From NCBI GenBank assembly GCA_026387385.1, contig JAPLLU010000091.1, positions 1 through 48,031 of the forward strand: a stretch of DNA of 48,031 nt. Reading direction: 5' to 3'. Position 1 is the first letter of the stretch. The number at the start of each line of letters is the position of its first letter. Positions 5,299 through 47,509 of the stretch are shown here, one piece after another. The position numbers and the translations under genes were made by a program. The notes beneath the pieces were generated by a model, which saw only the letters and a list, made by a program, of their open reading frames with translations, did no database searches and was not told the origin of the DNA. Origin of the DNA: Candidatus Omnitrophota bacterium (lineage in GTDB: Bacteria; Omnitrophota; Gorgyraeia; Gygaellales; Profunditerraquicolaceae).

Positions 5299-5316
5299 AT
5301 ATTAACCTACTCTTGA

Positions 5317-5433
5317 GGTTGTAAGTTGCAGATTCAAGTTTAGTGGGTGGCACGGGGATGCTTCGCAGCGCGTCTTAGCGCAAGAAGCGCCCCGTGACAG
5401 GACCCGCTAAACGCGTACGTGCAACTTATAACC
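5317..5433 (+). repeat. Family C hairpin element (copy C1) with an extra outer stem
   Basis: Core 5339-5412: tttagtgggtggc-acgggg-[loop]-ccccgt-gacaggacccgctaaac. Outer stem ggttgtaagttgca / tgcaacttataacc. It fills the ilvC-leuA gap. Confidence 0.88.
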
Positions 5434-5435
5434 TT

Positions 5436-6437: not shown

Positions 6438-6624
6438 TTAAATGAGCACTTGATTTATGGAGCCTATAAAGGCGACATAAATCAATCTTCTATGAGACAC
6501 TATCCTGTTTGTGCGAATTTAACCCCTCACTCAGAGACGTTATAGAGTGTAATTCGATATCTGAGTGAGGGGTGAGTTCGGCCAAATAACTTATGTCGCA
6601 CTACGCGCTCCATAAGTTATGGCC
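6438..6624 (+). repeat. Family F tripartite structured repeat (copy F-C)
   Basis: ttaaatgagc + hairpin (ttgatTTATGGAGC..GCGACATAAatcaa) + gcgaattt + hairpin (aacccctcactcaga..tctgagtgaggggt) + gagttcgg + hairpin (ataacTTATGTCGC..gCTCCATAAgttat). It fills the ilvN-ilvC gap and abuts the ilvC RBS. Confidence 0.88.
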
Positions 6625-10696: not shown

Positions 10697-10810
10697 AGCG
10701 TAAAGTGTAAAACGTAAATCGAAAAACTCCTGCCTGCCGGCAGGCAGGGAAACTTAAAACTCAAAACTTTAAGCTTTAACTTTACGCTTTTCGCTTTAAG
10801 CTTTACGCTT
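10697..10810 (+). repeat. Family A palindromic repeat, short form (copy A2)
   Basis: agcgtaaagtgtaaaacgtaaatcgaaaaact-CCTGCCTGCCGGCAGGCAGG (perfect 20-bp palindrome, 10729-10748)-...ctttacgcttttcgctttaagctttacgctt. It lies between the aldolase gene and ilvD. Confidence 0.9.
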
Positions 10811-22026: not shown

Positions 22027-22158
22027 AGCGTAAAGTGCAAAGCGAAAAACTCCTGCCTGCCGGTGAGGTAGGAAAGTTAAAAACTTAAAACCTTTTTAGT
22101 TTTACCTGACTGCCGTCAGGCAGGCGTTTTAACTTTACGCTTTAAGCTTTTAGCTTTA
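22027..22158 (+). repeat. Family A palindromic repeat, long form (copy A3)
   Basis: It lies between tRNA-Lys and frr and has the same ends and internal palindromes as A1. Confidence 0.9.
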
Positions 22159-22721: not shown

Positions 22722-22789
22722 TTTTAATCATCTCCTTCAATAAATAATATTTTTAACAGGCTAATTAATCCTATTCCTTTTATTATCTG

Positions 22790-22879
22790 CCCCGTTAGAA
22801 AAACCGTTATTTATGGCGCAGGGATAAGATTGATTCCTTACAGAAAGCTCGATGTAAAACCCCACCCTTTCTAACGGGG
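22790..22879 (+). repeat. Family G hairpin element (copy G1)
   Basis: Outer stem ccccgttagaaa / tttctaacgggg. The interior atttatggcg...ggga resembles G2. It lies about 60 nt upstream of the frr RBS in transcript sense. Confidence 0.8.
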
Positions 22880-22891
22880 TCTGCTTCGGAA

Positions 22892-23042
22892 TTTATACTC
22901 CGCGGCCTGTAAACCTGCGCCCTTTAGGGCGCGCCCGCCTCACCGGACGGGCAGGGATGGATTGTGGCCGCTTGAGTATCCAGCCTTTAGGGCCCTTAGG
23001 AACCGCCTAAAGGCTTATAGCCTTTAGGCGGGCGCGGGCTCC
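22892..23042 (-). repeat. Family H repeat (copy H1)
   Basis: Its reverse complement (ggagcccgcgcccgcctaaaggctataagcctttaggcggttcctaagggccctaaaggctggatac...gccctaaagggcgcaggtttacaggccgcggagtataaa) aligns end to end with H2. Confidence 0.88.
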
Positions 23043-23124
23043 ATTTATAGCTAAAAAAAGCTCAAGGATCTAATCTTGTAATCTTTCCCCAGGAAGAAAT
23101 ATTTCTTAATAAAAAGGAGAGGGG

Positions 23125-25270: not shown

Positions 25271-25303
25271 AGTACCTGTCTCCTTTCCGGATTTCAAAAT
25301 TTA

Positions 25304-25402
25304 CCCCGCACCTCGTAAAGCCCCGCCATTTATGGCGGGGATGGAAGGGGTACGCTTAATAAGTCTTCCCTAAAGCCTCGTCCTTTAGGACGAGGTGCGG
25401 GG
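25304..25402 (+). repeat. Family G hairpin element (copy G2)
   Basis: Outer stem ccccgcacctcg / cgaggtgcgggg (perfect 12 bp). Inner hairpins ccccgcca-ttta-tggcgggg and cctcgtcc-ttta-ggacgagg. It lies immediately upstream of rpsB. Confidence 0.88.
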
Positions 25403-25487
25403 TTTACTTATTAATGTAAATTTTCCTTTGAGTTATTGTCAAATTAATCTTTTAGTGTAACATATTATTTCTTAGTTTCAACTGTTT

Positions 25488-25623
25488 TTAATGAGCGCAT
25501 ACCTTATGGAGGCGATAGCCGACATAAGGTATATGCGCGAATTAACCCCACACCCAGAAAGCAATAGATTTGATTATTACTGCTGGGTGTGGGGTAAGTT
25601 CGGACGCTCCATAACTTATGTCC
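25488..25623 (+). repeat. Family F tripartite structured repeat (copy F-B)
   Basis: ttaatgagc + hairpin (gcataccTTATGGAGGC..GCCGACATAAggtatatgc) + gcgaatt + hairpin (aaccccacaccca..tgggtgtggggt) + aagttcggac + gCTCCATAActtatgtcc. Confidence 0.9.
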
Positions 25624-25627
25624 TCAT

Positions 25628-27418
25628 TTATCTACGTAATTCCTGCATCTGGTAAAGCCTTTTATATAATCCATCGCAGGTAATAAGAGATTCGTGATTG
25701 CCCTGCTCAACAATTCTCGATTCATTAATAACAATAATCCTATGCGCATTTCTTATTGTAGATAGCCTGTGCGCTATCACAAATACAGTGCGTCCTTTTA
25801 TAAGCCTATTTAGTGCTTCCTGGACAATACGCTCTGATTCTAAATCCAGCTGCGAAGTGGCTTCGTCTAAGATTAAAACAGGCGGATCCTTAAGTAAGGC
25901 GCGAGCAATTGCAATCCTCTGGCGCTCTCCCCCGGAAAGCCTCATGCCCCTATCACCGATAACTGTCTCATACCCACAAGGAAAATGCTCAATAAAATCA
26001 TGCGCGTAAGCCTCTTTTGCTGCCTTCTCTATATCCTGCAATGAGGCGCCTGGTTTACCATAAGCAATATTTGCCTTTATTGTATCATTAAAAAGTATAG
26101 TCTCCTGAGTAACTATGCCTATTTGTTGACGTAAGGATTTAAATGAAACCAGCCTTATATCCTTACCGTCAATTAATATCCTGCCTTTTTGGGGGTCGTA
26201 GAAACGGGGGATTAGGTCTACTAAAGTAGTCTTACCGCATCCGCTCGGACCAACTATGGCCAGTATTTCTCCTCTTTTTACTTCCAAATTTATTCCCTTT
26301 AGGATCTGCTGACTACCGTAGTTAAACCATACCTCCTCAAAAACTATATTGTTTTTGAATTCAGTTAACTCATCCGCATTTTCTTTTTCCGCAACTGATT
26401 GATGAGCATCTAATACTTCATAAATACGGCTACTGGCTGCCATGGCCTGCTGATTAGTGGCATTAACCTGGCTTAATTTTTTAAATGGCTTGACCAGTGA
26501 TAATAACGAACCTAAAAAAAGTCCGAATACCCCAAAAGAAAGCCTACCGGCAATAACCTCTTTGCCTCCCCAGAAAAATACAAATACCCCGGCAATGGCG
26601 CCTAAGAATTCCGTGGAGGGTCCTAAAATAAGATTACGTTTTATGGATTTCATGGCCACCTTATAATAATCGCGGTTGACCTGGTTAAATCTTTTTATCT
26701 CGTAATCTTCCATATTAAAGGCCTTAACAATCCTTACGCCTATGATTGTTTCGTAAAGTAGCGAATTCGTATCCGCTATCTTTTCCTGCCCCTTACGGGA
26801 TAATTTTCTTAACACCTTGCCCACCTTTATGATGGGAATACTTATGAGCGGTAAAAGTATCAGTGTGATTAGGGCAAGCTTAGCATAAATAAAGAATATT
26901 AACACAGTAAATAAAACTACCTGTAAACTTTGGTAGATTAAGTCCGTAGAGCCATAAGAAACCGCATTTTCTACAAGCCTTACATCATTGGTGATGCGTG
27001 AAATAAGCTCGCCTCCGCGTTTATGGGTAAAATAATCCATTGAAAGGGCCTGAAGCTTTGCATATAGTTTTGATTTTATATCTCTGACCACCCGTTGTCC
27101 GATGTCAGACATAAGATAGGTCTGTAAAAATCCGAATATCCCCTTAAGAAAAAAAAGAGCCAGGACTCCTATCGCCATGTATTTTAATAATACCATGGCT
27201 TCCGTATTATTTAACTTATCCACAAAACCGGCTAAAAAAGCGGGGAGCTTCGTAGGTACAATGATTTTCTGCTTGCTTAATACCTTATCAGCTAACGGAA
27301 CAATCATCGCAAGAGAGACTCCGTCAAATATTGCCGAAAAAAACATACAAATCCCTGCTAAGGTAAATAGGCTAAGGTAAGGCTTGACAAACTTAAGTAA
27401 TCTCAAATATTCGCGCAT
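25628..27418 (-). CDS. msbA: ABC transporter permease/ATPase, MsbA-like lipid A exporter
   Basis: 596 aa: six-TM domain plus NBD (GPSGCGKTT Walker A, LSGGERQRIAIARAL signature, LILDEATS Walker B). It lies next to an lpxB cluster. Confidence 0.8.
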   Translation of the reverse strand: MREYLRLLKFVKPYLSLFTLAGICMFFSAIFDGVSLAMIVPLADKVLSKQKIIVPTKLPAFLAGFVDKLNNTEAMVLLKYMAIGVLALFFLKGIFGFLQTYLMSDIGQRVVRDIKSKLYAKLQALSMDYFTHKRGGELISRITNDVRLVENAVSYGSTDLIYQSLQVVLFTVLIFFIYAKLALITLILLPLISIPIIKVGKVLRKLSRKGQEKIADTNSLLYETIIGVRIVKAFNMEDYEIKRFNQVNRDYYKVAMKSIKRNLILGPSTEFLGAIAGVFVFFWGGKEVIAGRLSFGVFGLFLGSLLSLVKPFKKLSQVNATNQQAMAASSRIYEVLDAHQSVAEKENADELTEFKNNIVFEEVWFNYGSQQILKGINLEVKRGEILAIVGPSGCGKTTLVDLIPRFYDPQKGRILIDGKDIRLVSFKSLRQQIGIVTQETILFNDTIKANIAYGKPGASLQDIEKAAKEAYAHDFIEHFPCGYETVIGDRGMRLSGGERQRIAIARALLKDPPVLILDEATSQLDLESERIVQEALNRLIKGRTVFVIAHRLSTIRNAHRIIVINESRIVEQGNHESLITCDGLYKRLYQMQELRR

Positions 27419-29832: not shown

Positions 29833-31005
29833 TTATAACGACTTTGCGATTGCAATGCGTTCGTCAACAGACGGATGGTCAAAGAAGAAAAATCTGATTA
29901 TAGGATGGGGATTTCTATCTGCGAGATTTTGGGAAGACAGCTTTTCCATCATAGAAATGAATGCCTCTTTTAAACCCGTTACTTTAAGCGCCTCTAAATC
30001 CGCATTTCTTTCGAATCTGCGGCTGATATAGTTCTCAAATGGCTGCATTACTATCCCGAAAATAACAAAATACATTAAAATAACCGGCAAGGCTGCAATA
30101 CCCCATAGTGATGACAGACGGAATATGCCCAGAACATAGTTGTTCGTCATAAATATAATATAAAAAGACAGCATTATAGCTAAAGAATTCACCAATATGA
30201 GCTTGACCAGGTGTCTCAACCTATAATGTGCAAATTCATGGGCCAGGATTACTTCAATCTCATCGTAACTATACTTATCCTTTAAGGTATCGCTTAATAT
30301 CACCCGTTTAGTAGCCCCTAAGCCCACAAAGGCGGCGTTTGCCTTGACTGTCTTTTTGCTAAAATCTACCTGAAAGACATCCAGAATCTTTACCCCGTTA
30401 GAAATCTTGTTGTTTTTTCTTGAAGCTTTGGTATTTCTAACGGGGTTTACCTTCATTTTATCTGCCAATTTTATTATGCGACCCCTTAACACCTCATCGG
30501 AAAGCCTCTCATATTTAAAGAATAAGGGGATAACTATAATCGGCACTAACTCTGCCATAATCAAACTAAAGAATATCCAGAATAAAGAAATTATCAACCA
30601 CCAGGTAAAGAAAAAGTGTCTTATTATATAATAAAAAGCGCTTATTAGGATAACGGCAATGATATATGATATAATGCCGGCTTTAATCTGATCTTTCAGC
30701 CAGCTAGCGACTTTCTGGTTGGATAGGCAGAACTTGCGTTCCAGGGTATATGAACGGTAAAAGTTTAGAGGAAAATTCAATAAGTAATATGCGAGGTAAA
30801 CTATAAAGATATAAGCGGAAACTGTTAGATAATTATTAGCTATAAACCCCGATAAGGCCTGAGCGAGAATTTTAGATAAACCTGAGGCCGCAAATACAAA
30901 AAGAAGCAAAAAAAGATAGACTATATCTATAATAGCCGTAGAGTATTTAAGGCGTGAGTATCTTTTGGCTTTGTCCGGCTGAACACCTTTACTAGGGCTA
31001 TCCAT
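29833..31005 (-). CDS. M48-family (Ste24/HtpX-like) zinc metalloprotease, carrying an in-frame palindromic-element insertion
   Basis: 390 aa, polytopic: HEFAHY (HExxH), NAAFVGLG..KRVILSDTL, FFFDHPSVDERI. Residues NPVRNTKASRKNNKISNG are encoded by hairpin G4. Confidence 0.85.
   Translation of the reverse strand: MDSPSKGVQPDKAKRYSRLKYSTAIIDIVYLFLLLFVFAASGLSKILAQALSGFIANNYLTVSAYIFIVYLAYYLLNFPLNFYRSYTLERKFCLSNQKVASWLKDQIKAGIISYIIAVILISAFYYIIRHFFFTWWLIISLFWIFFSLIMAELVPIIVIPLFFKYERLSDEVLRGRIIKLADKMKVNPVRNTKASRKNNKISNGVKILDVFQVDFSKKTVKANAAFVGLGATKRVILSDTLKDKYSYDEIEVILAHEFAHYRLRHLVKLILVNSLAIMLSFYIIFMTNNYVLGIFRLSSLWGIAALPVILMYFVIFGIVMQPFENYISRRFERNADLEALKVTGLKEAFISMMEKLSSQNLADRNPHPIIRFFFFDHPSVDERIAIAKSL
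30393..30445 (+). repeat. Family G short hairpin (copy G4) inside the M48 protease CDS
   Basis: ccccgttagaaat (30393-30405) / atttctaacgggg (30433-30445): a perfect 13-bp stem with the same sequence as the G1 outer stem and the same flanks, ta-CCCCG...CGGGG-tttac. Confidence 0.88.
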
Positions 31006-47381: not shown

Positions 47382-47509
47382 AGCGTAAAGTGTAAAGATA
47401 AAAACGCCTGCCTACCGGCAGGCAGGTAAAGTTAAAGTTTAAAACGTAAAACTTTAAGTTTTGAACTTTAGTTTTTCGCTTTACGCTTTAAGCTTTAAGC
47501 TTTACGCTT
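47382..47509 (+). repeat. Family A palindromic repeat, short form (copy A5)
   Basis: agcgtaaagtgtaaagataaaaacgcctgcctaccggcaggcaggtaaagttaaag...ctttacgctttaagctttaagctttacgctt. It lies between nrdJ and apgM. Confidence 0.92.

Follow-up and report, generated by a model that had tools for sequence, protein, structure and literature searches.

Well-documented translated repeats in bacteria are the Rickettsia palindromic elements (RPEs), repeats of ~100–150 bp that are confined to Rickettsia and lie in-frame in unrelated housekeeping genes, where they are translated and are tolerated where the protein fold allows (PMC10969869). Here we describe a 53-nt hairpin element inside the gene for a Ste24-type M48 zinc metalloprotease of a Candidatus Omnitrophota bacterium; the DNA analysed, referred to below as the window, is a stretch of 48,031 nt (contig JAPLLU010000091.1, positions 1–48,031, assembly GCA_026387385.1). 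An earlier note on this DNA had likened the hairpin to an RPE, and this likeness holds for the outcome, as RPEs are likewise in-frame, translated palindromes and the hairpin family shares the in-frame habit; however, the element is not a member of the RPE family. RPEs encode 30–50 residues, whereas the M48 element is MITE-like (see below), measures 53 nt (26–104 nt across its family), has 13-bp inverted repeats and a 4-bp target duplication, and occurs in other phyla; it is thus outside the size and taxonomic range of RPEs, and it is size and hosts that set it apart.

Several other systems of small mobile hairpins invite comparison. Miniature transposable elements with inverted repeats (MITEs), such as Correia/CREE, ERIC, Nezha and the QMITEs of Coxiella, are similarly short and transposase-less; their many copies are dispersed, they have inverted repeats and duplicate the target, and occasional in-frame fusions of MITEs with host open reading frames (ORFs) are known. 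The hairpin element has the same features, namely terminal inverted repeats, a duplication with empty sites (in three filled/empty comparisons) and small, dispersed copies lacking a transposase; it differs from usual MITEs in its much smaller size, in having stems identical across phyla and canonical subfamily lengths of 3n-4, in that the loci searched revealed no parent insertion sequence, and in the coupling between its orientation and an asymmetric 4-nt flank. piggyBac duplicates 4 bp (TTAA), has 13-bp inverted repeats starting with CCC and excises precisely (PMC5381638). The hairpin element resembles piggyBac and IS1380 in its 4-bp T…A tetranucleotide duplication, its CCC/CC ends and its ~13-bp inverted repeats, and its patchy distribution is compatible with precise excision; however, it targets TAAA/TGAA rather than TTAA, and no DDD/DDE transposase was found near any copy. 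REP/REPIN-RAYT systems and the IS200/IS605-derived PATEs also involve short hairpins mobilised in trans (by an enzyme that is possibly single-copy), insert in a strand- and orientation-specific manner and sit beside a tetranucleotide, but REPs are extragenic and without a flanking duplication, and REPINs and PATEs comprise two hairpins, whereas our element is intragenic, consists of a single hairpin and has variable tetranucleotides duplicated at its flanks. Finally, mitochondrial double-hairpin elements, GC clusters and 'byp' elements, and phage T4 gene 60, offer further cases of small mobile hairpins in coding sequence; where those of mitochondria and T4 break the frame they are bypassed, whereas the present element always keeps the frame and so is probably read.

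A recent insertion in the M48 protease gene

The element lies at positions 30393–30445 on the minus strand of the window, reads CCCCGTTAGAAAT-ACCAAAGCTTCAAGAAAAAACAACAAG-ATTTCTAACGGGG on the gene strand, and belongs to the 53-nt 'ATACCAAAGC' subfamily described below. Inverted-repeat searches placed its terminal repeats at 30393–30405 (CCCCGTTAGAAAT) and 30433–30445 (ATTTCTAACGGGG), forming a perfect 13-bp stem around 27 nt, or 14 bp counting the flanking A·T pair (i.e., 14-nt perfectly complementary arms at 30392–30405 and 30433–30446, 27 nt apart); by our arithmetic, chance alone would produce ~0.03 such arm pairs in 48 kb. The RNA form of the hairpin folds with -20.9 kcal/mol (z = -4.2 vs 200 shuffles). 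On either side is one copy of a 4-bp target duplication (30389–30392 and 30446–30449), which is TTTA on the plus strand and TAAA on the gene strand. The host gene (29833–31005, minus strand) is an intact ORF of 390 residues, with the metalloprotease motif HEFAH present and the insert corresponding to residues 187–205. The repeat search and the intact ORF therefore bear out the earlier description of a perfect, frame-keeping hairpin within the M48 coding sequence, although its size had been put at about 54 nt and 18 codons; the inserted DNA is instead 57 nt and 19 codons (N187–V205), made up of the 53-nt element and one copy of the TAAA duplication.

The history of the site is evident from its homologs, for which we used the window protein together with its best 120 homologs, all Ste24-type proteases of Omnitrophota. 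The segment NPVRNTKASRKNNKISNG is confined to the window protein and P0001 (95% identical), whether 21 or 121 sequences are aligned; P0002 (94% identical) and all other close relatives are without it. Overall, the segment is missing in 117 of the 121 sequences and just four have anything at the site, so that the comparison with orthologues proposed by the earlier note came out in favour of an insertion, a 94%-identical protein being among those without the segment. At the DNA level, what distinguishes a filled from an empty allele is exactly 57 nt; the former reads ATGAAG-GTAAA-[CCCC…GGGG]-TAAAG, and the empty sites of P0022, P0025 and P0003 have one TAAA apiece. The same insert is found in two independent assemblies, and its 57 nt are identical between two alleles whose genes differ by 4.1%. 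The M48 hairpin is a recent insertion in an intact gene.

The same position has been occupied more than once. P0037 (~75% identical) has there a 53-nt element whose stems are the same and whose loop differs, its site reading GTAAA[53 nt]TGAAAATC vs ATGAAGGTAAAAATA in P0025. In P0019 (~73% identical) the occupant is an unrelated, near-perfect palindrome of 26 nt, CCCCGCTCCTGCGCGCAGGGGCGGGG, which is GC-rich and encodes a peptide unlike that of the 53-nt element; the sole difference between the sister pair P0022 (…ATGAAAGTAAAGATACTG…) and P0019 (…ATGAAAGTAAA[26 nt]TAAAGATACTG…) is the 26-nt palindrome plus TAAA at one TAAA. In a quick neighbor-joining tree the three carriers fall in three separate clades, each with an insert-free sister. 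Insertion into this one TAAA has thus happened three times over, each time in another Omnitrophota lineage and in one case by the different palindrome of 26 nt, and because these three occupancies all have clean empty-site sisters, the conserved GTA-AAG (Val-Lys) codon pair is a hot spot. In P0071 a copy of the element lies immediately upstream of the start codon and has been annotated as protein, and the annotated N-termini of both P0071 and P0099 are in reality element sequence. Separately, the M48 orthologues P0020 and P0091, and an ORF upstream of the annotated P0019 start (L125, ~2300–2600), have N-terminal peptides (ANGST(P/L)LT…RSRS, FDKLRTSPERSRG) that look like translations of other GC-rich repeat families at the gene 5' end.

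The protease itself appears to have kept its function despite the insert. Pfam matches of the 390-residue ORF are to Peptidase_M48_N (1.6e-22) and Peptidase_M48 (6.1e-21), with the insert between both; HEFAH and all other invariant residues are kept in the alignments. The dN/dS ratio (nonsynonymous to synonymous substitution) between the two insert-bearing alleles is 0.21, equal to that of insert-free pairs, and by these ratios the M48 gene is still under purifying selection. Aligned to human ZMPSTE24, the protein shows a 19-residue gap exactly at the insert. An AlphaFold (AF2) model built from the 121 sequences (pLDDT, the predicted local distance difference test, 87.5; predicted template-modelling score, pTM, 0.82), which replaced a first run on 21 sequences (pLDDT 67, residues 187–240 all low), has residues 187–203 as its sole internal segment with pLDDT <50, in a coil between helix 171–183 and strand 206–213. 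Foldseek matched the model to ZMPSTE24 (4aw6) with a TM score of 0.82, ZMPSTE24 and Ste24p both scoring ~0.8. The domain pair M48_N and M48, the HEXXH motif and the seven-helix chamber fold all place the host in the Ste24 class, and the insert is predicted from the model to be a disordered loop within the loop-5 domain of that fold. This bears out the earlier suggestion that the extra peptide sits in a loop, as the site maps between the helix and the beta-strand that comes first in the loop-5 domain.

The hairpin family and its copies inside genes

Three copies of the family lie within the window, the other two being intergenic and on the plus strand. G1 (90 nt, 22790–22879) is between frr and pyrH, has the same 12-nt terminal stems as the M48 copy and is flanked by TCTG/TCTG (22786–22789 and 22880–22883); G2 (99 nt, 25304–25402) is upstream of rpsB, has an interior homologous to G1-type elements but different terminal stems (CCCCGCACCTCGT), and is flanked by TTTA/TTTA (25300–25303 and 25403–25406). 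Both resemblances pointed out by the earlier note are real, i.e., the M48 copy shares its 12-nt outer stem with G1 and its TTTA/TTTA flanks with G2; the paired-stem pattern common to the M48 copy and G1 had no match in 100 shuffles of the window. Rfam 15 gave nothing credible at the M48 element, G1 or G2 at either gathering or permissive thresholds, and only three tRNAs in the window pass the gathering threshold. The interval between G1 and G2 contains pyrH, tsf and rpsB, and no transposase.

A scan of one genome per species with the pattern CCCCGTTAGAAA-N19-79-TTTCTAACGGGG returned at least 120 loci, with more than 120 copies in species-representative genomes of many phyla; chance matches to this pattern are estimated at less than one. 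The hosts are Omnitrophota, Planctomycetota (Pirellulales, Phycisphaerae), many Patescibacteria, Desulfobacterota, Nitrospirota, KSB1 and a few others. The scan accepted exact stems only, so that the sample understates how diverse the family really is. Interiors in this genome set are very diverse (16–79 nt between 12-nt stems). Exact 4-nt flank pairs accompany 77 of 124 copies among the matches listed, and both flanks are of the form YNNR, next to which there is a preference for G at -5 and for C at +5. A second scan, of metagenomes with the 21-nt left end of the window copy as query, yielded 114 loci, all with short elements only, and 88 of the 119 elements in them are exactly 53 nt. When orthologous sites were merged, 72 distinct insertion sites remained, of which 62 have an exact duplication; the targets over the 72 sites were TAAA in 41, TGAA in eight and TTAA in two. 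The consensus of this 53-nt subfamily has two ~20-nt ends (CCCC…GGGG), each consisting of the 13-bp terminal inverted repeat and ~8 conserved subterminal bases, around a variable ~12-nt center. Metagenome-assembled genomes (MAGs) contain several copies each. Neither a literature search for the stem sequence, which found no paper, nor keyword searches, which retrieved reviews of MITEs, RPEs and piggyBac, revealed a description of the CCCCGTTAGAAA…TTTCTAACGGGG hairpin family, and it is apparently undescribed so far. Phages are not an obvious vector, since a scan of viral contigs gave a single match.

Copies inside genes are regular in length. Of the 126 elements among the matches listed for the genome set, 75 keep the frame by their length once the duplication is counted in, vs 42 expected. 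Long ORFs, defined by at least 50 codons on either side of the element, read through 21 of these 75 and none of the 51 of other lengths; in the metagenome set the corresponding figures are 30 of 81 and none of 17. Every copy inside a long ORF (51/51) is therefore frame-keeping and stop-free, and frame-breaking lengths are found only outside ORFs. All 30 metagenome coding copies share one orientation and phase, giving the peptide xPVRNTKA…K-ISNGV, which is the one open phase, since the remaining frames are closed by stops, one by the TAA contained in TAAA and the other by a TAG from the stem. Pfam showed the host genes to be everyday essential ones, and the proteins so identified include HolB, PheT, FolD, GlyRS, ProB, PrmC, exonuclease III, a Mur ligase, an AIR-synthase-like protein and a dehydratase, to which UvrA and indolepyruvate oxidoreductase can be added by inspection. 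In-frame copies with the stem of the M48 insert are thus numerous across genomes and metagenomes, so that the scan for them proposed by the earlier note came out in its favour, but its view that such colonisation is rare outside Rickettsia does not apply to this family, for which it is the normal habit in several phyla. An ORF of 1130 residues (L110, 1380–4772) has two in-frame variant elements, with stems CCCTGTTAGATAAA and TTATCTAACGGGG, that encode …LDKS(T/M)SQDKHYLTGFT….

The flanks of the elements have two unusual features. When oriented by their asymmetric loop, flanks of the TAAA/TGAA/TAGA/TAAG type occur at 58 sites and the complementary type at one, non-codable copies included, and in the genome set, where related elements at different sites were paired across species, 19 of 20 pairs agree in this coupling. 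Closely related loop variants can differ in their flanks, e.g., the variant …GGTGAAGG[C/A]AAA has TGAA flanks at five of seven sites, and its sister variant …GGTGAAGACAA[G/A] has TAAA flanks at all seven. Flank type is inherited with the element lineage. Tandem arrays of the form element-TAAA-element-TAAA-partial element were seen at L149 (~400–570), L190 (~2880–2990) and L224, and it looks as if, in these, the duplication beside one copy was itself a preferred target. In another arrangement, the MAG DX4.bin27 has identical 94-nt elements inside a longer repeated unit (L009, 2166–2259 and 4941–5034; also L008, L038 and L020), and a gene for a 686-residue secreted protein is there bracketed by two inverted copies, with no transposase between.

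Mechanism and rival explanations

We propose, with a probability of roughly 80%, that the M48 hairpin is a non-autonomous, MITE-like mobile element that inserted in-frame, that the copies seen inside genes are the survivors of a filter, and that the family is moved in trans by a piggyBac/IS1380-like transposase, this last part being inferred by us. The data above show the insertion with its target duplication and empty sites, the recurrence at one site, the membership of a family and the in-frame bias. The element integrated at the TAAA within the Val-Lys codon pair GTA-AAG, duplicating these four bases, and its orientation and a phase without stops added the 19 hydrophilic residues NPVRNTKASRKNNKISNGV. 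In the model these form a disordered loop between helix 171–183 and strand 206–213, which appears to leave the protease functional. Only frame-keeping, stop-free insertions in permissive loops would persist, and such a survival filter would explain why all copies in long ORFs are of length 3n-4. The enzyme would be a cut-and-paste DDE/DDD transposase acting in trans on CCC…GGG ends with a 4-nt stagger. In piggyBac, the excised transposon retains the four flanking bases of the donor as 5' overhangs that are able to pair with the target, and if the hairpin element likewise kept its donor tetranucleotide as overhangs pairing with the target, a relaxed, non-palindromic target would favour sites of the same sequence and polarity. 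Such carry-over would explain both the orientation–flank coupling and the inheritance of flanks, while occasional flap removal and fill-in could produce a switch to a new, equal flank pair. IS1380 is related to piggyBac and makes duplications of 4–5 bp, and its family member ISEcp1 begins CCTAGATTC, i.e., with CC.

Several observations weigh against this proposal. The preferred target is TAAA or TGAA, and TTAA, the piggyBac target, accounts for just two of 72 sites. The coupling of orientation is not what a symmetric DDE dimer would by itself lead one to expect, and plain duplication by a symmetric transposase predicts neither this coupling nor flank inheritance. The 12-nt stems are identical across distant phyla, which is unusual for MITEs and points to horizontal spread or a very conserved partner. 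At the M48 site, where the tree is a quick neighbor-joining one, many precise losses instead of three gains are formally conceivable; a single ancient insertion followed by precise losses would require at least 10 losses. Lastly, searches of the DNA flanking the elements revealed no candidate enzyme. No pair of ends 150–6000 nt apart in the genome loci (~0.9 Mb) encloses a transposase, the chance pairs found enclosing a secreted protein, a fructose-bisphosphatase and a large ORF; the 114 metagenome loci with the 21-nt left end revealed no long element with these ends and no transposase; and a phmmer search with the ISEcp1 transposase against locus ORFs of at least 120 residues (~1.7 Mb of flanking DNA) gave no match. 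All-vs-all clustering of the locus ORFs recovered housekeeping families and one large serine recombinase unlinked to the ends. The latter, of 565 residues, occurs in four element-bearing loci (L195 and three other metagenome loci), and no link to the ends was seen.

The leading rival is a reading without true target duplication, in which one tetranucleotide belongs to the element and an identical one is required in the target, as could result either from site-specific recombination with a shared core at a circular GGGG-TAAA-CCCC junction or from a 'peel and paste' HUH/Y1 enzyme (of the IS200/IS605/RAYT kind) that recognises a single hairpin. An element-owned tetranucleotide would account for the 58:1 coupling, the agreement of 19 of 20 related pairs and the heritability of flank type with lineage; empty sites have exactly one copy of the tetranucleotide, the whole element is a single hairpin, where flanks are unequal the constant TAAA is mostly on one particular side, and no DDE partner was found in the loci searched. 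Nevertheless we regard it as rather unlikely. Equal but non-canonical flanks (TAAG, TAGA, CAAA, TTAA, CAAG, CACG) occur on interiors near-identical to those flanked by TAAA, as would be expected if a variable target is truly duplicated. For IS200/IS605 elements a pair of subterminal hairpins is required and flank repeats are absent, and the overlaps of known recombinases, 2 nt for serine and 6–8 nt for tyrosine recombinases, are unlike the 4 nt here. The symmetric YNNR flanks, with G at -5 and C at +5, are in addition typical of staggered cleavage by a dimer.

It is also conceivable, though improbable, that the insert has been retained because it is useful, either as a new surface loop or as an mRNA hairpin tuning translation or stability, and that selection led to the site being re-struck. 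Three independent occupancies of one site, a stable 14-bp stem within the mRNA, the identity of the 57 nt between alleles that otherwise differ by 4.1%, and the single orientation and hydrophilic peptide of all 30 subfamily coding copies could be taken in this sense. However, 117 of 121 orthologues manage without the insert, and the third occupant is an unrelated 26-nt palindrome encoding another peptide, so that the occupants have the target in common and not the product. The target GTAAAG fits the general preference of the family, the same peptides occur in many unrelated enzymes, the loop is predicted to be disordered, and zero differences in 57 nt vs 2.3 expected is not significant.

We think it very improbable that the element goes untranslated, through ribosome skipping or removal from the mRNA as in phage T4 gene 60 or the mitochondrial 'byp' elements. 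Direct 4-nt repeats do flank a strong hairpin, and bypass systems also have matching codons beside a hairpin, but bypass would leave length and stops unconstrained, yet 51 of 51 copies in long ORFs are frame-keeping and stop-free. The absence of frame-breaking copies inside ORFs argues, at the level of sequence, that the element is translated rather than bypassed. It is hardly credible that the 19 residues, instead of being an insertion, go back to an ancestral loop that most orthologues have lost, or that they stem from faulty assembly, as only the bare presence of the segment speaks for this, whereas its carriers fall in three clades that each have a close insert-free sister with a clean single-TAAA site, two independent assemblies contain it, and it belongs to a dispersed repeat family.

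Two further known types of ends were considered and rejected: integron attC sites (GTTAGAA/TTCTAAC cores), as the stems here are perfect without extrahelical bases, and the elements have target duplications and are intragenic; and Tn3-type ends (GGGG, 5 bp), which have the wrong polarity and duplication length.

Other repeats in the window and significance of the family

Hairpin repeats are unusually abundant in the window; five of its inverted repeats are perfect over 14 nt or more. A ~170-nt composite repeat is present in two copies (6440–6620 and 25490–25650) and consists of a hairpin TTATGGAG…GACATAA, GCGAATT(T)AA, a CCCC…GGGG hairpin, T(G/A)AGTTCGG and CTCCATAAnTTAT. The 12–13-nt stems of its CCCC hairpin differ between the copies yet are complementary (CCCCTCACTCAGA vs CCCCACACCCAG); this inner hairpin is without a flanking 4-bp duplication and could be a different element or a structured RNA. 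At least three locations (10697–10809, 22027–22141 and 47382–47508) hold a further inverted-repeat family (AGCGTAAAGTGTAAA… / …TTTACGCT), and there is a separate 33-nt inverted repeat at 5316–5434. Adjoining G1 between frr and pyrH, positions 22884–23045 comprise a GC-rich block of short palindromes (gcgccctttagggcgc; ccgcctaaaggct/agcctttaggcgg).

The in-frame palindromic colonisation of housekeeping genes, treated as a peculiarity of Rickettsia, is thus now seen with a different and much smaller element, in hosts spanning Omnitrophota, Planctomycetota, bacteria of the candidate phyla radiation, Desulfobacterota and others, and with clean insertion signatures and recurrent hot spots. We speculate, tentatively and with the odds somewhat against it, that these hairpins represent a new cross-phylum superfamily of minimal transposons (26–104 nt) that reside largely inside essential genes with canonical subfamily lengths of 3n-4, re-strike the same codon pair of orthologues and carry their flank tetranucleotide between sites, by means of either a piggyBac-like 'seamless' enzyme or a wholly new hairpin-specific one. 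The family is a source of annotation artefacts and spurious 'motifs' (NPVRN…ISNGV, PLE…FLTGF) in MAGs, and at the same time a natural map of permissive loops in conserved enzymes. In addition, the inheritance of orientation and flank type points to a bacterial transposition chemistry uncharacterised so far, which may be seamless and piggyBac-like.

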